Of a DNA stretch of 32,436 nucleotides, positions 1 to 21,300 are shown in pieces. How positions within the stretch are numbered: the stretch's first letter is position 1; each line of letters starts with the position of its first letter. The position numbers and the translations under genes are program-made. The DNA is from Gonapodya sp. JEL0774. Taxonomy: Eukaryota. The DNA is taken from the NCBI GenBank assembly GCA_027604505.1, contig JADIIX010000194.1, positions 1 through 32,436 on the forward strand. Direction: 5' to 3'. The notes under the pieces are model-generated. The model was not told the origin of the DNA, did no database searches, and saw only the letters and a list, made by a program, of their open reading frames with translations.

Positions 1-408
1 CTCTCCTCTCTCCTCCTGTCTTGACCAGAGGCAGGAGCACCACACACAGCCCACCTCCCTGTGTGCCCACTGTCTGGAAAGACAAGGAAAAGTTGGACTT
101 TTAAAGGAATTTTGCGAGGGTTTTGCCACTGGTGCCTCACTTGCGTCATGCCTAAAAAAAGGCAAGGGATGACTTGGCCTCTCAGCTGGGAAACAGTTCT
201 CATATGAGAAAATCTCGAGGAAGAAATGTAATGAAAGCCTCAACCAAATTGTGATTCATGTCACAATACCACAGTTTGAGGTTACGCTGAGAATACCTTC
301 CAAATTGCATTTGGACTGGACAAGTAAAAATTTGTGCAACGGGGTTGTGCAATTTTTACTTGTCCAGTCCAAAAATGCAAATTTGATACAAGTAGCAGAA
401 ATCCAAAC

Positions 409-985
409 ATGGGATATACCACTCAGCAACTCCATGCGTGCAAGATGTTGAGGCGAAAAGGCAAAGTTCCAACGCGGTTGCTTGCTGAAGCATTTGGCGT
501 CTCCCCAAGGACCATAAGAACATGGATCGCATCGCCAGTTGTAAGCAGCTCATCCGCTGGAAGACCCCGAGGCCAAAAACGGAAGTGTGCTATGGACTTG
601 GAGCATCAGATTTGCCAGTGGATGATTGCTGATCCCTCACACCGACAATTGGATCCAGCTTGATGGGTTTCCGACTCTTTTGGAATTGAAATTACTCAGC
701 AGACCATCGGTAACATTCTCAGGAGTAACTGCATCACCAAGAGAAGCTCTCTACGTTGCTCCTGAGGCAACTGGGAGAGTGAGCGAGATACAAGCTTTTC
801 AGGAACAGATGAGAAGTCTACTGCATAGCACTTGGATGGCCATGGGTGAAGGTGGATTTAAGCTCGATGAAGATCCACGTTATAGCTATTCCAAAAAGGG
901 AGAATCTGCTCTATTTGCGAAACCCAAGTCCAAGGGCAAAGAACACTATACCCTTTTGCTCTGCCTTTGCTACTCTGAGCCCCCC
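409..985 (+). pseudogene. Decayed IS630/Tc1-mariner-family DDE transposase (N-terminal half)
   Basis: ATG at 409 gives MGYTTQQLHACKMLRRKGKVPTRLLAEAFGVSPRTIRTWI...GRPRG (HTH plus GRPR motif). After TGA 661-663 the same frame reads WVSDSFGIEITQQTIGNILRSNCITK (second HTH). A frameshift near 740 leads to WMAMGEGGFKLDEDPRYSYSKKGE...PKSKGKEHYTLLLC, matching the IS630 DDE_3 pattern (DExGF...YxYSxKG...YTLI), with the first catalytic Asp read as Gly (ggt 845-847). The remainder of the DDE domain is absent. Confidence 0.8.
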
Positions 986-1019
986 ACGCATCAGCAACGT
1001 ACTTCCAACGTTTTACAGA

Positions 1020-2325
1020 GCCCAATGTTTGGAAGTGGGTCAATCTTTGATGGTGTGACCTCTACTGCAGATGGAAGGGTGCATGGCACAAGGACTCAAG
1101 CATGTTCAAAAACACATTTGCTCGCCTCTTCCAACAATACCACCCTTGAAAACCCAAACAGAGAAGGCAAATGAGCCAAAGTTGATGTTCCCTCTTATAC
1201 TGCTCAACAAGAAAGGTTTTGTTTCAGTAATGAGGGATCTGATTGTGTTAAAATGGAAGAACATGACACACATTTTGAGGGCTGGAAAGGGATTATCCTG
1301 GACTCTGTGAGTAACAGAGGTATCAGGAACTACTGGATTGATCCCAACAGAAAGGGGGTAATGGTTATGATGACCATTGATGACAATGTCAGGATCCAAT
1401 TACTCACTACAACAGAAAGGGATCAAAAGGCAGAGCAATTGGCCAAAAAAATGCAAGCTGCTACATCTGCTGATCCCAAGGGCAAAGGGAAGGCAGTTAT
1501 TGGTAGTGGAGTAAAGGGCAAGACTGGAAGTATGTTGAGGTACCTCCACATAAAGCTGAGATCATCAAGACCATCACCAATAATTACTACCATCAAAAAT
1601 GTGGGGCACCACATTGCAAGATGGACTATGAATCATCTCAAGTCACATGTTATTATGGGTGACTATGAGAGCTTGGCCAGGGAGGTGAGGAAGATCCAAA
1701 CTGATGAAGTGAGAATGACAACAACACCAAGCACTTCTACTGGAACTGGAACTAGCAGAGGAAGAGGAAAAGGGAGAGCAAGACAGTCTGCAAGTGTGCT
1801 ACCAGGCAGTATTACTGCTTTTGAATCTCAGATTGAATCCAAGAGGACCTTTGATCTGGCACAATTCCAGAAGCACCTTCAATCTGTGGGAGATCAGTGG
1901 CAAGATGCTGTAGAATTTTACTTCCATGATGTTTTCCACCACCTGAAGTTCCAGACACATGGAACAGCCATGCAAGCTCGTCAGGAGATCATTAAAGAGC
2001 TGTTTCAAAAGCAAGCTCAAAGTGATTCAACAAATATCACTCCAAATTTAATTCACCAGAACGTGGTGGTGTTATCTTTCAGGTGCATTATGGTGATGCA
2101 AGATTCAATGTTTCTAGCAAAGGACATGCTCCTAGTGCCCATAACCTCTTTAGAGATGATATAACGAAATGAAAAGAAACTTGCGCCTTGTGTGGACAAC
2201 TGTTTGCTCAAGGCGCTGATGATAAAGACATTGAACTCAGAGGGCCTTGTTAGAAACATGTGCTGGGTTATACCACATACCAACATTGCAAGCACAACAA
2301 CAAGGTCTCAGCTGCCATCACCATC
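1020..2325 (+). pseudogene. Decayed Fanzor1-like (eukaryotic TnpB-derived RuvC) nuclease, C-terminal part
   Basis: Ordered motifs: FDGVT (~1046-1060, TDGVS-like); WIDPNRK (1334-1354, RuvC-I DPG-like); ITNNYYHQKCG (frame +1, within 1561-1605); FESQIESKRTFDLAQFQKHL...EFYFHDVFHHLKFQTH...QARQEIIKELF; after a frameshift near 2005-2020, VHYGDARFNVSSKGHAPS (2083-2136); CALC (2182-2193); YQHC (2278-2289); VSAAITI (2305-2325). Stops at 1172, 2023, 2170 and 2251. Confidence 0.72.
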
Positions 2326-2329
2326 TCAT

Positions 2330-3840
2330 TTGACGATGCGCTGAATGACAGGATGGGGAATGTGGCAAATGGTGATGGTTCCAGTTGCTACTGTAGCATT
2401 GGGGGGTCCTCGGAGCTTGATGCTCTTGCAGTGGCAGTGGTGGTGGTTGGGGTGGTTGTGGTGACTTGCATTTCAGTGAGGTTGGTGAATGTGCCGCCAG
2501 CTTTTCCAGTCCTGTCAAATGTTCTTTTGGTTCTGATAGCACACTGCCTGACCTGCCACATTACATCCTGGACTCTGGCCTGTCCCATCACAACCTCCTC
2601 CTGTGCTGTTCGTGTTCCCCAGATTTTCTGGTGACTTGTTTTGACCACAGCCACCTCCCTGTCTTTTGTCACAACCTTGTGGTGGCAGTTGCATCACTTT
2701 TGACTTCCAAATCTTAGGTGTCATTTGCATGAACTCTGGCTCTGGTTTTAACAGCTTCCCTCCTGGTTCCTGCCTCGCAGGAATGTCCCATTCATGCCTA
2801 TTGGCTAACGGTGGGTAAATTGACGTTTCGAGTGGCTGATGCCCAACAGAAAGTCCTTGAAATGGTCCGACATGATGTTCAACTGATTCTTTCCAGTGAG
2901 CGCAAGAATTTGTGTTCCATCTGGTCCCAGTGCTTTGTGAACATTTCCATTAATTGTTTCTCCACGTGCTGCTGTAGCAATTGTGCTTGTCGTGGTGTGT
3001 ACCATCCCTGGTCTCGAAACGCTGTACGTTTGGAACACTGCCCACATCAGATTGTCACTTTCTTTCTTGTTTTCTCCATCATCCCATTTGTCACTGTTCA
3101 CGTGAGATACCATACTATCCATGAATTCATGTCCGAGACCAATGGCAACTGCAGTGACTGCACCCAGAGTTTGTGTTCAAGCAGCAGGCACTGTTATGCC
3201 TTCATTCTGTTTTGCATCCTATGCCACACTCTCTTCCTCCATAAGCACACTTGCACACCAATTTGCTGGGCCTGCAGTTGTTTACCCCAACAACTCTGCC
3301 ACCCAATGCAGCTGACGCACAAAGTAGCAAGCCTCCTTGCCTGGACGATGCCTTGGAAGCATTGGTTTGCAAGCAACACAGAACCCCTCAGGGTCTTGTT
3401 GCTGCTTCAGATGTCAGGTTGTTGTGTTTTCGTTTCACGTGTTGCAACGGTATGTCCCGCCGGCATCACAATAGCCTTCTGTGCCTGAAGCACTGCTACC
3501 TGCTGCACTGCACACGCTACCTTCTCGCCTCCTTTTCCGCCAGATCCATTGACATCTGCACCTTGCAAAGCACTAACTCCCGTTCCAACTTCGCCAATTC
3601 TAACTCACACGTTATTTGCAGTGACCTTTGCCTGCGCTTTGTCCACTTTCTTCTTCCACACCGCTGCACTGTTTTAGCGTCCTTTGTCGGCGCGCAACTG
3701 CCAGTAGCACCTAATGGCGCAGACCGACGCAATCAATTGGGAGCCGGGTGGGGGGGGCTATATATTGGAGAGGTTGATGGGTCCTTTGGCCTTTGCAGCC
3801 GACCCCGAGGATTTGCTGGTGGGCACTAAGTGGAGAGCCA
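2330..3840 (-). pseudogene. Possible decayed coding sequence of unknown family (coiled-coil-like fragments), probably repeat-derived
   Basis: Minus-strand protein-like fragments broken by stops and frameshifts (VDKAQAKVTANN / ELELAKLERELVLCKVQMSMDLAEKEARR; MDSMVSHVNSDKWDDG...HFKDFLLG; a Thr-rich tail). CpG-poor like the adjacent element. No recognisable motif. Confidence 0.3.
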
Positions 3841-4198: not shown

Positions 4199-6495
4199 AT
4201 GCAGGATGCCGAAGAACATGACTTCATTCTGCTGGGAACTGATGTCACCTTGGCGATCCTTGCGGCGTGCGTCTGCACTTGATTCGCTCTGTCTCTCCAA
4301 TATTTGAACAGTTTCTGTTCATTTGCTTCCATTAGAGCGCTATCACGATCGGGAAAGTCCGTTCTTCATATTGATTCGAATAATTTTTACGGAGGAAATG
4401 ATCCTGCTTTCAACTTCAAGGATGTCCTCCTTTGGCTGGCAAAGAATGCTGATCGTCCACAGATTGACTCTTTCCAAGGATTGACTCCACGCCATCACCT
4501 CGAAGCCGAAAAAGTTTTCGACTCATTCTCCGCTCAAGTCTATCCAGACCCGGAAGTGCTACTCTCTCTCTCGCCGTTTGTGAGCTCCCAGACATCTGGT
4601 GATCAGGCATCATCGTCATTCACGCCAGGACATTTCTTCGATATAATGAAGGGCGCACAGAAAGATGTAGACGATTTTTTGAGCCACAACGTGCATTTGG
4701 ACTCGCTTCTGTGCTCTCTTTCTGTTCAGTTGACGGGCACAAATGGTGAACCGTTGAACTTGCCGGACACTCCCACCCTGCTTTTTTCGCACCCGTCGGT
4801 TATCGAAACGGTTGCCAAAACGTCGACTTTGTCGAAACTTATCCAGCGAAGTCGCAGCTTTCACTTGGAAATCTCACCGAGAATAATGTTGTCACGGGGG
4901 CCTCTCATTAACACAGTCGTCACATCCGGCGTAGGGCGGTACATGGATTTCAAGATACTCGAACATTTGCAAATTTATCAAGATGGCGGCGTGAGCAAGG
5001 TAGAAATGTTGAATAGCTCGTGGATTTCGACGGATCGCCACGCGTCAAACCTATATCTCGGTTGCGCAGGTTCCCTTTTCAAAGGAGGATGTGTTCACCA
5101 GCTCTGTACTGTCATTACCGGAAAAACGCCGTCTAATGCGCTTGTTGACATCATTATCAGACCCATCCCAAGAGTTTGTTGGTCGGTGCTTTGCAGTTCT
5201 CCAAACAATCCCACAACCGCATTTGATTGATTTTTTTTCGATTATATGGAGATCCCAACATACCACTCGACAGCTTTTTGACTCGTCAGAATCTGAACCC
5301 AAAGATCAAGCAAACCATCTCTAACGCGATCGCCCTACCCACTTCCTATCGGAAAACCGAAGCTGGTGAATGACGGCGCAGATGTGACGGGAAAGTATCT
5401 TATACAAATTTCATCTCTGGTGTGACTCCCAGTGTCAGCAAAGGCCGGCCTCGTCAACACGAGAATGTTTTTGCAGTCGATCGGAGTTTATGGGCCGTTG
5501 CCGTTCCTTTGCCCCATGTATGGTGGCGGCAGTGAATTGTCGCAAGCGTTTTGCCGGTATATGCACGCGTCTGCTTTGATACTTCTGCTTTGCCAATGAC
5601 ATGTCTTGTTGCAGTCTGAGTGCGGTGTACGGCGGGACCTACCTCTTGAACTACAAATTCGACCGCGTAGAACTTCCTACTAGAGATGAAGATCTGTTCA
5701 TGGTGTACGGCAGCGATGGTCAGACCTGGAAAGGTCGTCACGTGATTGCGTCGCTAGACTACACATTCAATTCTGAAAGACCGATGTGAGTTGGAAAAGA
5801 CGACAGATTCTTGGGCTACTCCACCTTTGATATGCCAGTTTACCTTCTGGTGATCCACATTAAGCTCTTCGGATTCATTCCTGTCGCGAGCATTGGTGGT
5901 GGCGCGAACACACCAGTCAGATTTCTCGCTGCAACAGCGTTTAGTAGTTGTTCCAGCTGCAGAAGCGGGAAATGAGAACAGGGTAACTGTTGTGCAGTAT
6001 GGAGAGGCCATTGGTGCGACTCCAGAAGGATATTGTAGGCAATTCCTGCTGCGACTGACTTGTCAGGCTGTTGTTAAACGCTCTGTCTTCCTAGGTGCGT
6101 TGTACTTTACATCTGAGCACAGCCGGAGCCCACAGAAAGATCTGGCTTCGACTATCGAGAAGTTTGTGTCATTTGATTGCACCATCTCTGATTCGGAAGG
6201 TACATTCGAATGTGCCATTGAATTAATCTCAGTCACACCTCACCTGATCTTGTCATTTTGATAAGCGATGCAACCTCTTCCAGTGGCGTGCTTCGTCATT
6301 TACTACCGGCAGAGGGTAAGGCAGGGTTACCATGAAGCTTTGGGACTTCGAAGAAATCAAATCTTCAACTGCTCAGACTCTCCACCAACACTGGACTTGG
6401 ATGATTGTGTAGGAGCGGCGCAAGCCCTTTTCCATGAACTTTTAGGAGGAGATGCAATATTTCTTCCTCCCATACCACAAGAAAACGATGAATGA
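4199..6495 (+). CDS. MRS6: Rab escort protein (Rab geranylgeranyltransferase component A; REP/CHM/Mrs6, GDI superfamily), multi-exon
   Basis: [43 protein letters not shown] (intron 4267-4335), followed by a long REP-type insert, then [49 protein letters not shown] and [35 protein letters not shown]. The C-terminus [11 protein letters not shown] ends at 6495. Confidence 0.9.
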
Positions 6496-6520
6496 CAACT
6501 AAGATCTATTCTAAAACAGA

Positions 6521-8103
6521 CTATCGTGCAACTCGGCGTGGAGGGTTTGGTAGCTTAAATGGAACATGCAAAGAAGCAAGCAATGTCGTAGTACCGTCGT
6601 CTGCAGTTATGGGTTGCAACTTGCAGCCCATGGCGCGGCAAAGCTCAGAGAGTCTGAAAAGATGGAGATCAAATTGGTGGAGGACGAATAATTGCGTTAG
6701 TTAATATGGAGACTCAATACAGATTACGTTCCTCTCACTTCTTTAACGAAAGTTTGAGGGAGGATGACAGCGCCGACAGGTTGATTTTGAATCCGCAAAG
6801 GTGCAGGAGAGATGCCAAAACATAGCAACAGAGTTTGTCTTGCTGTTTTGGAGGAGACGAATATGCCCTGAGATACGATACCATGAGACTAAGAACTTTC
6901 AGAGCAGAGTCATAAGTGATGGCTGTGCTCACTTCTTTTCATCTTTTGCTTGCAAGAAGCGTGCCGCCAAGCCTTCGAAGACAGCGATCGGTGCCCCGAC
7001 TTTTGCTCGAACTTTCGTCGCATCATCGAGCAGCTTTGTGTTGACTATAGATAACAGTTTAAGCATGTAGCTCGTGTGAACAAGTTGCTTCAGATGGTCT
7101 TTGGAACGACTTGCACTAGGCAGTTGGAGATGATCATGGAAAAGTGAATACACGGCACTCTCTTGGTATATGCTGTGACCCGAAGAAACTGCCATTGGCG
7201 TAAGCGAATCAAACATGAGCTCTCAGTTCCCACCGAGCACTGACCCATTCTCCTCCAAAAGTCGACCAGGACCATCCCTGGTCTCTCGAAGAAACTTCAG
7301 GACGGGAATCTGCTGCATTTCAAGCACAGGGTGGAGGTGTTCCAACGGATAAATCTGTTCCACTGTACCAGCAGCCTGTTCCAAGGGAGGAAGCACACTG
7401 GTGACAGACTCAACATCACCAGATTCCGCATCCATGTGGGTCTGTGCACTTAGAGCGTCCAGAACTTCAGTTGATGTACTCTCAGCGTTCACTTGATTGC
7501 GGGCATACGCGCGAATGGCCTGCTGGCGTTTGCGCGACCCGAACGTCTCACCCAGCTGGTTGCGGGCTGTGAAGTTCTACAAGATCAAAATAACCTGCCA
7601 GTGCTTTTTTTCGATCAGGAATGTCTTGCTTTGGCTGCCCTCACCTTGGTCCGCACGGTTTGAGAGTCATCTCCCAGAGGGTCTTCACCAATTGTTTTCA
7701 CATGCTGTCGCACTTCGAACATTCGTGTCTCCTTCAGCGTCATGGCATTGGTCTTTCGATTGTATATTCCAATGATGTACCTGAAAAAGCAATCACCATT
7801 CAAAGAACTCGAGTGGTCACGAAACGCTGATGCGAACTCACCTCTCGTGAGGCACATCTGTTCCAACAAATGCAACCCGTCCACCGTCCCCGACAACTTC
7901 GAGTCGCCTTCTCTTCGGTGCGGGACCAGGAGAAGCGTCAAGTGAACCGAAGAGGGAAAACTGCGAACCTTCGCCGACATTGAGAGCTGGGAAGGAAGCT
8001 GTTGGTTTGCTTGTGAGCTGCGAAGAACAAGCTGAAGCAATCGACGTCACAAGGTACCCAAGAATGGTCCTTGTTCGTCATCTGCTCCTCGTTTGAAGTT
8101 CAT
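6521..8103 (-). CDS. RPA49: RNA polymerase I subunit A49 (RPA49/POLR1E), multi-exon; start codon uncertain
   Basis: GPFLASFP; YIIGIYNRKTNAMTLKETRMFEVRQHVK; NQLGETFGSRKRQQAIRAYARN; LPPLEQAAGTVEQIYPL; KLCCYVLASLLHLCGFKINLSALSSSLKL. Last exon LSELCRAMGCK...ASLHVPFKLPNPPRRVAR*, with the stop at 6521-6523. Confidence 0.85.
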
Positions 8104-11616: not shown

Positions 11617-12570
11617 AGAAATTGGATGAGGTGACTGGAGTCCCTTAAATGTATTAAATCTCAGTTATGGGAATCCTCTGCGACATTTTATGCACAACTT
11701 CAGGAGAAAATATATTCAAATAAATCACGATTTTGCATGTCAGGATTATATTGCAATCGAATATGCATGGTATGACGTCTAATCATTTCAATCTGTAATG
11801 CGCAACAATCCCGTTAATTTTCAGAGACCCATTCATCTAAGCACTATTGGTGGCGTTGGAATCTCCAGCGAACTTTCCCGCTAGACTTTTGGGCTTGGCG
11901 CTGTGATTGCAATGAGCAACGGTCACACACAAAATTTTTAACCACCGCACTTTGAGGTCTCAACTCACTTTTGAAGAATTGCTCTCTTTTTGTTCAACAA
12001 CTTTGCTGTCGTGGGAGACATCATCCCATCTGACGGGCTGACAATACTGTTTGGGGATAGGAGTTGCGTCAGCATCAGCACGACCATCAGACCATATTCC
12101 TGATTGAGACGAAACGAAGGAAAAACTATTGGTCAACGGAAAATCCCAGGAAAAGAGTTTTGCGTGTGGTGGTGCAAAGTAGTAGGCACAAAAGCCCACA
12201 TCATCACGTGAAGCATGGGCCCGGCAAGATAGCGGAGCTAGCTAGCTGCAAGATGCAGTTGATCGAGCGCGGAGTGTCTGGAGAACTTGGGACAGTTACT
12301 TCGGGGGATAGCGGAAGCTCACCCTCCACCGCGCCCACCGGCGCCAGTCAGCGTGACGACGTTTTTGTGGATTGGTGCCGGATTTTCCTTAACGGCAGCT
12401 TGAGATGAGTTCTGAGTGTCACTGAGCATGATTCCTTTGCGGGATCGTGGAAGTCACTGGGGAAATCTACAGACAACAGGAGCAGGTGAGGTGAGTTCTC
12501 TTTAACCTCGACCAAAGCAACAGTCACATGTTTCCTTTATTTGTGCAGCAGCCTTCCCCACCCAATCTCA

Positions 12571-15500
12571 ATGAACTGTCTTAGAGCGCCGAAAATAAGG
12601 AATTCATTGCTCTGGACCGCAGCTTTTCTAACTCCTCGGAATGAACCTCAGGCAATTAATAGCCTCACATTTTCACCAGATGGATCATTATTGGTTGTTG
12701 CCTGTGGGCACAACTTGCTACTGTACAACGTAGAGGACGGGGAACTCGTACAGACGCTGAGGAGCCACAAGGATGTCATATATTGTGTGGACTGGTCCGC
12801 GACAGGAGGTCGTTTTGCGTCAGGAGGTGCAGACAAGACAGTCATCATATGGAACCGCAGTGGAGAGGCCATTCTGAAGTACCAACACACAGACGCTATT
12901 CAAACGATAGCTCACAATCCCAACACGGGTCAAATAGTCTCAGCAACAGCCTCCGATTTTGCTCTTTGGTCCGAGCAGCAAAAATCCGTTGCGAAGTACA
13001 AAGTGAGAAGCTTCTTAAAGTCACATCATAATATTTGACACATGCTCAAAGCGCCACATTTGCTGTAGATAGATGCCCGTGTTTTATGCTCCTCTTGGAG
13101 TGTGGATGGAGAAAGGTTGGCATTTGGACTGGATAACGGCCAAGTTTCTGTGCGAAACTCCACAGGGGAAGAAATTTTTCGTATAGACCGTGGAAACTCC
13201 GCTGTATGGACAGTGTGTTGGGTACCACCATCTTCACAGACGGATGAGGTCCTCGCCGTTGGCGACTGGAATCAGAAGCTTGCCTTTTTTACAAGCGATG
13301 GAAAGCAGATTGGAAGAGACCGTGGCCTAGGATGCGAGCCTAATATTCTCACGGTCGCTAATACCGGTGAATATATTTTGGTGGGAGGATCAGATCGTAA
13401 GCTCTCGCTTTGGACCACAGAGGGCGTCCGCGTGGATGAGATATGTAGCTTTGATGGGGCTGTTCGGGCGTGCAGAATTTCTTCGAATCGAAATGAATTG
13501 GCAGTCGGTTGCGACGACGGGACGGTTGCGATTTACCGCTTGACTTTTGAGGACGTCATCGATGTCTTTAAAGACCGTTTTGCGTACCGAGACAGTTTTA
13601 CAGATGTCATCATTCAAAATCTCGTGACTGACCAAAGGGCGCGAATTAAGTGTCGTGATTACGTCAGAAATGTTTCTTTGTTCTCGGGTCGACTTGCTGT
13701 GCAACTCTCTGAACGAATAATCATATATGAGGTCCTCGCGAATGACAACAGCGACATGCACTATCGCATTCGCGAGAAGATTCCAATGAAGATTGACTGC
13801 GATCACTTCCTTGTAACATCCGAGAATCTGATCATCTGTCAAAAAGCGGTAGTACAATTGTACGACTTTTCAGGGACAAGAAAGAGAGACTGGCACCTGG
13901 AAGAAGATGTGAGCTGTGTCATGGTTGTGGGTGGCCCAGTAGGTCGGGAGGGCTTACTAGTGGGCCTAGCGAATGGTCAGGTCCTCGAGCTATTTCTCTG
14001 GAGCTCGTTTCCTCTTCCATTGGTGCGAACTATGTCGACAGTGTGGAAAATGGAACTCAACTGCGTCCGACAGAAAATTGCAGTCATAGATGCCGAGCAA
14101 GTCCTGCAGGTTTTTGACCTGCGAACAAAGGAACTGCAGTTCCAGGAACCTCGAGTTCAAAGTGTCACTTGGAATGCAGAATGTGAAAATATTATCTGCT
14201 ACTCTAGTGGAGAGTTTCTTCGCGTGAAAGCCGGCAATCTGGAGTCCCATCCGCGAAAAATGCAGGGTGTTGTAGTGGCATTCCTTGGATCAAAAGCATT
14301 CTGTTTGAAGGGTCTCACATTGTATCCCGTCACCGTGTCTGTCACTACGATGCTGGAAGCAATCGTGGAAACTCAAGACTTTGACGCAGCGTACCTCATC
14401 GCTTGTGCTGGTGCGACTGAACTTGACTGGCGTCGCTTAGCGTTATCGGCTATTGAAGGGTTGGAGTTTGTAGTTGCTCGAAAGGCTTTCTCCAGACTGA
14501 AGGATGTCAAATTTATACGACTATTAAACGCCCTTAGTCGTTGGAAAACAGACTCAGCGATGACAAAGGATGGCTTGCTCGCGGAAATATTTTGCTATGA
14601 GGAACGGTATTCTGAGGTGAGCAACTCACGCTCACACTACTTTCACTCCACCATGGAACTCATCTACGCTTCCGCGATTCTTGTGTCGTAGGCGGTGGAT
14701 CTTTTCAGAAAAGCTGGCTTGGTGCAGAAAGCGATTGATCTTTTCGCTGACTTGAATTTGTGGGAGAAAGCTGTTCAAATTGCCGAGGAAAATTCAACCG
14801 ACAGAGGAGCAATATTGAAGCGCAAGGCACAAAGCCAGGCGAACAAAAATGACCTACTAGCGGCCGCTCTTACATACAGCGAAGTTGGCGAGTACGTCAC
14901 GGCAATTGATTTACTTGGGGCGAACGGCTGGTTGGATCAGCTGATGGAAGTTGCTCGAAAAATTCCGAATTCAGACACCAAAGCGTTGAGTCGGTGCATT
15001 TTGTACTTCCGAAAGAATAGTCGTGCTGACTGCATCATTGAAACCCTGTTGAAAATGGGTGATGTTGAGCACCTGGTCACCGTATATGCAGAGTTGAACC
15101 GTTTCGAAGAAGCCTTCCGTCTAACTGAGCTTTATCCAGAGTTGGCTCCAAAAGTGAATCTTCCTTACGCCCATTGGTTGGCATTGAATGATCGCTTCGT
15201 GGAAGCTGAAGAAAATTTCAGAAAAGCCGGGCGCTTGGATGATGCCCTCAAAGTGCTACAACAGCTAGCCAAAAATTCGGTTAATGAAGAACGCTATTCA
15301 GATGCCAGTTATTACAATTGGCTGCTGGCCCAGCATTACTTGCATCAGATTCCAGCAGAAACGGAATTGTCCAATTTCGACGTGAACCAGCGGGCAGCAT
15401 ATCGTAATTTTCATAGATTCCTCGAACTGGCGAATTTATTTTACGTCTATCATCCCGTTTACCGATATGTGGAAGATCCATTCACTGATCGCTCTTCAGA

Positions 15501-16290
15501 ATCCTTGTTGAGCATGTGCCGTTATGCTCTCATTTATGCTTCCAGGCAGTCCTGGCCTCGCGGTACATCAAAGGCACATGTTTTCTGGGCTCTAGCTAAA
15601 CTTGGACGCGCATTGGGCGCGTTTCGCCTCTCCCGTTACGCACTGGAGAAGCTACAGAAGCTCAAGGTGCCCCCTGGATGGCGGGACCTGATTGAGACTA
15701 TGGCTCTTTTGTCGCGTGCAAATCCGGACGTTGACAATGAATCACTGTTTTTGTTGTGTTTTCAATGCTCCACTGCCAGTGAACTGATCAATTATGATGA
15801 ATTTCGCAATGGGGACCAATGCACCAACTGCCGGGAGGAATTCATACCGTCATTTTATTCGTTTGATCATTTACCATTAGTTGAATTCCGTTTAGAAGAC
15901 GGCATCGCAGAGGATGAGTTCCATTCACTGTTATCACTGGATCCTCTGCTTACTTCGTACACCGCAGGATCGGAAACAAGCGATGTGAAGCAGCAACTGG
16001 GATCCTTTATGAGCCTTCTTGGGTCCCCGGATCGCCAAGGAGTCAATGCCCGGACTCCCATTTCTGTGGGAAAGGATTGCCTGGCAACCATGGAAGCGGA
16101 TGACGTTTTCGTAGTGAAATGGGGAAAACGCTGCATGCCTAACCGCTATTTTAAATCCATTCTTCCATCTGACTTCCCGATCTCTTTTTGTGAGACGTGC
16201 AATCACTTTTGGGAAGCCACAGAGCTCGAGTTTCTCTTACTGAAGGATAGTCGTTGCCCGTTTTGCCGAACGAAGCGGAGTGTGTCCTGA
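12571..16290 (+). CDS. IFT122: Intraflagellar transport protein 122 (IFT-A core; WD40 + TPR + C-terminal Zn fingers), ~1190 aa; an additional 5' exon is possible
   Basis: Exons 12571-13002, 13069-14616 and 14692-16290. HKDVIYCVDWSATGGRFASGGADKTVIIW, DFALWSEQQKSVAKYK, TDVIIQNL..RARIKCRDYVR, DMHYRIREKI, PYAHWLALNDRFVEA, SFYSFDHLPLVEF and terminal CPFCR are all IFT122 hallmarks. Confidence 0.95.
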
Positions 16291-18338: not shown

Positions 18339-21300
18339 ATGGCGGCATCAGCTCATTCAGAGGCCGCAATGCGAATTCTGAGCGAGCTCAAGTCCAGGTC
18401 GGTGGCGACCGCCAGATTCCATTTTGTACGAACAGCTAACCACTGAAAACTGCAGCCGCACAGAGGACGCTCGACTCCGTGCTGCAAGTGAGCTTAGGGA
18501 TCACGTTGTCGCAGTGTCACGAGAGTTATCGGGAGAGAACTTTACGAAGTTCATGAACGACGTGAACCGTCGTATCTTTGAGCTCGTTCACAGTCCTGAT
18601 AACGAAGAGAAAATTGGTGGCATAACTGCCATAGGTGGGAGCTTGTTTTCTGGGATCCTTGTGATGCTTTCTCAATTGTCACCCGCTGGAACTCACTTTC
18701 ATGACTACTCCCACTCCAACCGTTGTCCACTAATGCTGACTCAGATAAGCTCATTGATTTTGATGGAGAGGAAAATACTGTCAAAATCACCCGTTTCGCC
18801 AATTACCTGCGAATTGTACTTCCTGGGAGTGATCCGCAGACAATGGTACTTGCTTCAAAAGCCCTGGGGCGCCTCGCTCTGAGTGGGGGTACACTCACAC
18901 CAGACTTTGTGGAGTTTGAAGTCAAGCGCGCGTTGGAATGGCTGCAAGGTGAGTGTGATTATTCTGTTCGATTCCTTGCAACGGTTGACAATGAAGACTC
19001 TAATCCTAGGTGACCGTAATGAATCACGGAGATACGCCGCGGTTCTTGTACTTCGTGAACTGGCGCAGAATGCCCCCACCCTTGTCTTTGCTTATGTTCC
19101 TCAAATACTTGACTTGATTTGGGTCGCTCTGCGCGACCCTAAGGTCACCATCAGAGAGAGCGCTGCGGATGTCATTCGAGTTTGTCTTGAGCTCATGCAG
19201 CAACGTGAAAGCATGTTGCGCCAACGATGGTATAGAAAAATCCTCGATGAAACACAAAAAGGATTCAAGCCAAACAGTTCGGACGCCACTCTGCATGGCT
19301 CGCTGCTCGTTTATCGAGAGCTTCTCACCCATACAGCCAAGGTGAAGCACGCAGTGCATCTCTGTGCGTTTGCACATCAATCACAACGTCCAAGCCCTTT
19401 TCCTCTCGGCTCTAGTTCATGGACGCTCACTATCGAGAAGCCAGCGAAACAATCCTACGTTACCGCGAAAGCCGTGATACGCTGGTCCGCCGTACCGTGA
19501 TCTCCCTTGTCCCTGTCATCGCTGCATACGATGTTGGAGGCTTCGTTGACAGCTACCTAAACTCTTGCATGGCGTATCTGCTTAATCAACTCAAACGCGA
19601 TAAGGAGAGATCCGCTGGTGAGTCCACAATTTATTCAGAAATAAGCAAGAGTTTGCAAGTGGTGGTGTGCTTATGTTCGTTACCAGCATTTGTTGCAATT
19701 GGAAAAGTGGCAATCGCAGTCGGCGCAAGCATGGGCCCGTTCCTTGATGCGATTCTTCAAAATGTTAAGGACGGATTGTCGGCAAAAGGGTGAGGCTTCC
19801 CATCAACTTTCTCTGTGTGGAAGATAACCACGTTAAACTCATCAACGGCAATTCACACGCATTACAGCCGAAATCGCCTTCACGTGGCTGATGCTGCTCC
19901 GATTTTTCAATGCATTAGCATGCTTGCTACCGCAGTTGGTCAGGCATTGACAAAGCATATGCACGATCTTCTTGAACAGATGTTCGCCACAGGGCTAAGC
20001 GAACCACTGAGGCAAGCTCTTGTTGATCTGGCGTTATATATTCCGCCACTCCTACCGGCGATTCAAGGTGAGAATCTACTTGCAAGATGACTTTCTCGTT
20101 TCGTTTGTTTTTGGGGTCTTTTCATTGATGCGTTTTCAATACATTGGTAGAGCGTTTATTAAACGTGCTTTCAATATGCCTGAGTGGCCAGCCTTATCGT
20201 GCACCGGGTGCGCCACTGAAATATGGCACAATACCGGGAGTCCGGTCTCTGGACATAACCGTTGGTGAACCTCGTTACAAGTAGTTGTTCCTTGAACTGA
20301 CTCATTTGTGTGGAAGGCTGCTGAGAAAGATCCCGACGTCATTATCTTGGCGTTGGTGACGCTTGGCACCTTCGATTTTCGTGGTCACGCTCTAAATGAG
20401 TTCGTGCGGGACTGCGTAACTCATTACCTTGATGATGACCACGCCGACGTTCGCAAAGCGGCTTCGATCACATGTTGTCAACTTCTCGTTCGGTACTGAG
20501 CTCGCAAGTTCCAGCAATTTCATGCGCTTACTTGATTTATGTTACGCCCCAGCGACCCTGTGTGCTATCAAAGCAGCAATCACGCGATGCGAATTGTTGG
20601 AGAAATTCTCGAACGACTGCTCACCGCTGGGATTGCGGACCCGGATTCGAGTATTCGTTGCACTGTGCTCTCTTCCCTCGACGAACGCTTTGATCACCAC
20701 TTGGCCCAGGCTGGTTGGTACTGTTTGCTTGAGGCATTGTTGAAGATGAGTGTTCACTCACCTTTCCAAATTTAGAGAGTATCCATTCCTTGTTCATTGC
20801 TCTGAATGATGAAGTGTTCGCCATACGCGAGCTTGCTATCACCATTATTGGCCGTTTAACAATACACAATCCTGCTTATGTAATGCCTTCTCTCAGAAAG
20901 ACGCTCATCCAGCTTTTGAGTGAGCTTGAATATTCTGGAGTGAGGTGCGTGACTTTCTCCCCGCAGCCTACAATGTTTCTCCAACTGACCTTGATAATAA
21001 TTCAGCCGAAATAAGGAGGAGGCTGCGCGATTACTGAGCCAGCTCGTTTCAACATCGCAAAGGCTTATAAAGCCTTACGTGGAACCAATATTGAAAGTTC
21101 TTCTTCCAAAGACGAAAGATTCGAGCCCAGGTGTAGCGTCGCAGATATTGGCTGCCCTTGGAGAGCTCGCTCAAGTCGGAGGGGAGGACTTGCGACCTTA
21201 TCTTGATGAGCTTCTTCCCATTATCATCGAGACATTGCAAGATCAAAGCAGCGCTTCCAAGCGGGAAGTGGGTGAGTTTGAGAAAATACCTGGCTCGACT

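Follow-up and report, generated by a model that had tools for sequence, protein, structure and literature searches.

Does the left end of this DNA hold a Fanzor1 gene that can be seen only across frameshifts and, if so, what did that gene once belong to? The window, that is, the whole stretch of 32,436 nucleotides that was analysed, comes from Gonapodya sp. JEL0774, and a first-pass annotation had placed a dead copy of a divergent Fanzor1 at 1020–2325. Every word quoted in that annotation was found in the claimed order and frames, and profile, frameshift-aware and hhalign matches all point to Fanzor1. The proposed extent held only in part: the supported Fanzor portion begins at 1337, and position 1020 falls in a linker that matches neither Fanzor1 nor the gene upstream of it. 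The 303-aa open reading frame at 1253–2164 was confirmed and sits inside a stop-to-stop frame at 1175–2164. The transposase, linker and Fanzor1 features described below are all on the forward strand.

Fanzor1 references came from a protein search and from viral and metagenome contigs scanned for motifs; two motif scans yielded no usable Fanzor protein. The resulting alignments matched the solved Fanzor1s PpFz1, SpuFz1 and GtFz1 with E values of 6e-68 to 8e-50 (A1) and 3.5e-47 to 2e-33 (A3). One low-complexity reference (L174) was left out of profile U; the tree set contained neither it nor L194. Among 1245 six-frame stop-free segments, the 329-codon frame at 1175–2161 was the best match in the window for every Fanzor1 profile. 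The E value was 7.6e-4 with the A1 profile (8 sequences), 5.5e-5 with a 48-sequence profile, 3.2e-7 with a profile of 32/33 representatives made with no lid selection, and 6.4e-10 with a 19-sequence profile whose members were picked by lid type after the lid of the window was known. Frameshift-aware alignment recovered four colinear Fanzor1 blocks, namely the RuvC-I Asp, the YYH motif, the helical block and the G-D..KG.P lid, at 55.5 bits, as compared with 0.7 ± 1.9 (maximum 6.5) for 60 dinucleotide shuffles; the 24 other tile-strand scores were at most 6.5. With two profiles that were not lid-selected the scores were 38.9 and 19.1, each reached by 0 of 40 shuffles.

In a 76-tip tree built with FastTree (76 of 80 rows kept, the 4 with more than 30% gaps being dropped) the window fragment falls inside a 17-tip Fanzor1 clade with support of 0.986, on a long branch of 1.49. 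Its identity to the nearest reference is at most 22% over 135 columns (79 references aligned). Direct searches were silent: the window frame had no Fanzor or TnpB match in Pfam, NCBIfam or PHROGs, the 329-codon frame had no relative in two word-indexed protein searches, in a search of 1.84 billion representatives, or in viral or metagenome contigs, and pairwise BLAST against two viral Fanzor1s was not significant. The family PF26935, carried by 118 of 120 Fanzor1 proteins from the protein search, appeared on 19 of 30 ESM Atlas matches, but recognition was 1914 and the top match was DUF5045 (0.95), so that the Atlas lends weak support. A single-sequence AlphaFold model of 1322–2053 had a pLDDT of 36.7 and was uninformative on the fold.

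The individual blocks differ in strength. The RuvC-I Asp belongs to a DP(G/N) motif, here IDPN, and lies in frame +2 at 1340–1342, within a supported match at 1337–1378 (the word WIDPNRK starts at 1334); 2 of 300 shuffles reached the IDPN score. The DPN had been taken as a sign of divergence, a view that does not stand, as SpuFz1 of Spizellomyces punctatus (SPu-1; Saito et al., 2023, PMC10432273; PDB 8gkh) itself reads IDPNK, and a regular-expression census of 48 references found DPN in 22 and DPG in 16. Reading PNRK..TID as a WED motif was also considered (1.5–2.6 bits) and set aside; the RuvC-I reading scores higher with broader profiles. The strand-3/YYH..G motif (1555–1605), with ITNNYYHQKCG at 1573–1605, is read in frame +1; the low-complexity inserts on either side of it are open in frame +2. 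Its score was reached by 0 of 300 shuffles, and its being in frame +1 calls for a pair of compensating frameshifts. The long inserts after RuvC-I, noticed earlier, are real and have precedents: in the alignments of supplement S3 of PMC3627910, compared by eye, the Mucoromycota Fanzor1s ROr-4, PBl-3 as well as MCi-4 to MCi-7 carry, like the window, a long insert from the second RuvC strand to the motif before the helical block.

The strongest match, at 1808–2038 in frame +2, is the helical block that separates RuvC-I from the lid, as had been proposed (hmmsearch domain E 1.4e-9; hhalign probability 88.8, E 2.5e-6). Its likeness to SpuFz1 itself is a weak, gapless match over 79 residues (E 0.096). 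The rearranged RuvC-II strand with G-D and the lid follow at 2083–2169 in frame +1, where VHYGD..KGHAPS occupies 2083–2136; none of 200 shuffles reached the lid score, in agreement with the earlier reading of this segment. VHYGD aligns to an invariant Gly column, and thus the canonical RuvC-II Glu is replaced by Gly, as in the rearranged Fanzor1 site. The lid follows the G-D-A-x-F..KG.P type, which SPu-3 has in supplement S3 of PMC3627910, and differs from the SPu-1 type. The DE..TS segment is missing, as had been noted, and its columns are gapped in hhalign. PMC10711439 places the relocated catalytic Glu of Fanzor1 six residues ahead of the first CxxC; at this site no frame gives E-x6-C.

Downstream, 2179–2325 holds what is probably a degraded zinc finger and a remnant of RuvC-III in which the Asp position is occupied by Lys. 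CALC (2182–2193), QHC (ending at 2289) and VSAAITI (2305–2325) are present, with scattered Cys and two stops nearby; a test for a C4 finger found one CxxC, at 2182, and a non-canonical second pair. These elements stand in the expected order in hhalign of the lid-to-RuvC-III frame, lid included (probability 71, E 3.7e-5), but alone they do not rise above shuffles, 95 of 200, 113 of 200 and 15 of 150 of which reached their score. The RuvC-III Asp is absent, as the annotation had it, N-K occupying the R-D columns. The third catalytic residue is given as Asp, or Asn in GtFz1, in PMC11423790, which names E541 and D606 in SpuFz1; both are absent from the window copy. With two of the three catalytic residues gone (RuvC-II Glu and RuvC-III Asp), and with domains missing as described below, RNA-guided, TAM-dependent cleavage by this copy would be excluded. 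Judged by eye, introns are an unlikely cause of the frame changes near 1530–1569 and 2022–2059: the candidate GT..AG pairs there span 26–40 nt, below the 66 and 75 nt of two measured host introns in the window, which are short and GT-AG, or have the wrong phase. A possible intron at 1685–1805 (121 nt) would have a suitable phase, but two upstream stops would have to be read through. Profile homology, clade placement, lost catalytic residues, stops and frameshifts together bear out the proposal of a dead, divergent Fanzor1 copy.

Upstream on the same strand lies a gene that the first-pass annotation did not contain. Judged by its homology, 409–970 is a decayed IS630/Tc1-mariner transposase. Its N-terminal double helix-turn-helix part (409–762) is in frame +1, with an ATG at 409 and one in-frame stop, and matches NCBIfam NF033545 at E 1.7e-7 (31 bits, under the curated cut-off of 100) and Pfam helix-turn-helix families at E 8e-4 to 7e-3. 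The start of the catalytic domain follows at 761–970 in frame +2, with Gly at the position of the first catalytic Asp (845–847). Frameshift-aware alignment to a profile of 13 transposases, mostly from giant-virus loci, gave 33.0 bits, compared to -0.2 ± 1.9 (maximum 5.2) for 60 shuffles, and a second alignment gave 34.3 bits, reached by 0 of 40 shuffles. An ESM Atlas query with 626–1171 returned no usable match.

Between the two genes, the linker at 971–1336 continues in frame +2 with one TGA. It has no significant match to the C-terminal half of the transposase, including the second Asp and the Glu of the DDE/D triad (41 of 150 and 28 of 150 shuffles reached the scores), nor to Fanzor WED and TDG (107 of 150 and 84 of 150). 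FDGVT (1046–1060, frame +2), which had been equated with the TDG motif, fares no better than shuffles (35 of 60), and it stands 97 aa before the RuvC-I Asp as against 43–92 in 54 references. No profile match to the REC and WED domains was found upstream of RuvC-I. The room between position 970 and the RuvC-I Asp amounts to 123 codons, compared to 324–552 residues before this Asp in intact Fanzor1 references; the N-terminal target-recognition half (REC, WED) is therefore physically absent. The probability of at most one stop in a given frame of the linker is 0.012. The linker probably once coded in frame +2 and is the likely site of an internal deletion.

The arrangement of a transposase gene followed by a Fanzor1 gene has precedents. 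Fanzor1-bearing Tc1/mariner elements, PGv-1 and PUl-1, were published by Bao and Jurka (2013, PMC3627910), and an association of Fanzor with Mariner/Tc1 is also described by Jiang et al. (2023, PMC10530073). Like PGv-1 and PUl-1, the window combines a transposase of mariner/IS630 type with a Fanzor1 gene within a single stretch. It differs from these elements, as they are described, in that both of its genes are broken and truncated and no terminal inverted repeats or TA duplication were found. Its host differs as well, being neither a giant virus nor an oomycete but a eukaryote with flagella, probably a fungus. It also differs from Spu-1, for which Saito et al. (2023, PMC10432273) describe no transposase between the repeats. 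Six of the fetched loci, four from metagenomes (L129, L180, L189 and L205) and two viral (L289 and L311, in which the Fanzor1 ORF reaches the contig end and is incomplete), have a long Fanzor1 ORF with an IS630/Tc1-type transposase directly upstream on the same strand, no more than 219 nt away. The order and strand in the window are those of the four metagenome loci. Overall, of 94 fetched loci that have a long Fanzor ORF and at least 400 nt upstream, 19 showed an upstream transposase of this type on the same strand, as did 4 of 10 loci of the clade that holds the fragment, the loci being partly redundant in both counts.

The reading that best accounts for 409–2325, with a probability of about 0.78, takes the stretch as a relic that no longer functions: the 5′ part of a transposase gene stands ahead of a Fanzor1 gene's RuvC half, and the whole was likely one two-gene transposon, internally deleted and eroded. 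The observations beneath it are direct: the two homologies and their order, the missing N-terminal half, the stops and frameshifts, the lost Glu and Asp, and the erasure of CpG. An internal deletion would have joined the transposase and Fanzor1 genes of a single composite transposon, and erosion would have come afterwards, probably through silencing by CpG methylation and deamination. To judge from known families, the intact ancestor would have moved by cut-and-paste, its DDE transposase acting on terminal inverted repeats. Its Fanzor1 would likewise have bound an omega RNA, made at the element's right end, and cleaved TAM-flanked DNA, an activity that presumably aided persistence of the element; cutting of TAM-flanked targets guided by a right-end omega RNA has been shown for SpuFz1 (PMC10432273). 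The present copy would neither transpose nor cut. Counting against this reading are the linker that matches neither gene, the openness of frame +2 over 776–2161 but for one TGA, which exceeds what a long-dead relic requires, the two frameshifts needed for the YYH motif, the low identity given above, and the lack of a relative by direct sequence search.

That the two genes formed one element is argued from adjacency and precedent, since terminal repeats and a TA duplication were not found. Two unrelated dead transposons, a Tc1/IS630 element and a 5′-truncated Fanzor1 of another transposon type, could instead have come to lie next to each other in a graveyard of repeats, a reading that we regard as unlikely. 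It is favored by the absence of element ends. Around the element the only inverted repeat found was local, a near-perfect 85-nt palindrome at 301–385, 24 nt upstream of the transposase start, with perfect arms of 23 nt and a fold z of -13. Differences between its arms include TG/CA pairs, as CpG decay would give; it is possibly the left end of the element, or else a small foldback element. Neither of two 16-nt probes found a downstream partner for it, and its miRNA matches in Rfam were far under thresholds. To the right, where an omega RNA would be expected, three windows over 2320–2550 gave no stable fold (z -0.7 to +1.6), and this region had no Rfam match. In addition, 66 of the 94 reference Fanzor loci lack such a transposase in the available flank, and CpG depletion spans 1–3500, beyond both genes. 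On the other side, strand and order are the same as in known mariner-Fanzor1 elements, and frame +2 continues across the junction with one stop.

The CpG depletion is severe. Observed/expected values per 500 nt are 0.04–0.5 across bases 1–3500 and 0.9–1.1 over host genes; 1201–2000 has a single CpG against an expectation of 37.4, whereas the IFT122 gene has 55 vs. 44. This is the pattern expected for a methylated repeat, methylation being deduced here from CpG loss only, and transposons are reported to be preferential targets of methylation in fungi (PMC7862722). Neither 2330–3800 nor 1–420 matched a Fanzor or transposase profile on either strand. The CpG-depleted DNA at 2330–3500 has long protein-like frames on the minus strand, with no Fanzor, transposase or Pfam match, and is probably another decayed repeat.

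The open frame +2 suggests a second alternative, an ancestral chimeric protein in which a Tc1-type DNA-binding head and part of a DDE domain were fused in frame to the Fanzor RuvC half. Over 776–2161 frame +2 contains a single stop, a TGA of the kind that CpG decay would make, as compared with 25 and 32 in the other frames, and the stop count in the linker alone, given above, points the same way. But a random deletion between coding regions stays in frame one time in three, and the long frame was chosen for its length. Such a protein, in which the Tc1/IS630 head had replaced REC and WED, might have been a RuvC nuclease that binds transposon ends; without REC and WED its RuvC half would be unable to recognise a TAM or hold a guide, judging from the account in PMC11423790. 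No fusion of this type was found in the Fanzor and methylation literature searched or among the fetched loci, where the transposase and Fanzor are separate ORFs, and protein searches gave no relative of the ORF. On balance a fusion is improbable. Still less credible, and largely refuted by the profile and frameshift-aware results, is the notion that the 329-codon frame encodes an unrelated helical protein, e.g., a Bcl-2-like one, with Fanzor words arising by chance: Bcl-xL was the top PDB sequence match (E 7e-4, ahead of SpuFz1), DUF5045 headed the Atlas matches and the domain databases were silent on Fanzor, but the Bcl-xL match is limited to one stretch of 67 residues, and the four colinear Fanzor1 blocks lie far above shuffles with three different profiles.

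Read as the relic of a single transposon, the window copy is one more dead Fanzor1 element of a eukaryotic microbe, with an architecture described in 2013 and no working nuclease. It indicates that a Tc1/IS630-linked Fanzor1 lineage with so little identity to the aligned references once lived in this host, and that relics of this kind escape Pfam and database-wide HMMER searches. It is doubtful, although likelier than the fusion, that intact siblings of this divergent mariner-Fanzor1 family survive elsewhere in the genome. If they do, a fungus-like host in which Fanzor1 comes with a transposase of its own could be used to test the role of the nuclease for the transposon, a point that is left open in Fanzor papers (PMC10432273, PMC10530073).

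The remainder of the window is eukaryotic in gene content. Genes for a Rab escort/GDI-family protein (4200–7000), IFT122 (12490–16290) and TOR kinase (about 18880–26860) have normal CpG content. The closest solved relatives of IFT122 scored 490 and 466 bits, and its presence indicates a flagellated host, perhaps a chytrid-like fungus. Toward the right end, 29240–32390 contains an inverted duplicated gene pair with 74% DNA identity over 156 nt and several tblastx blocks; one frame in it has a match to the NIPA family of magnesium transporters. Positions 32055–32064 are 10 consecutive N.
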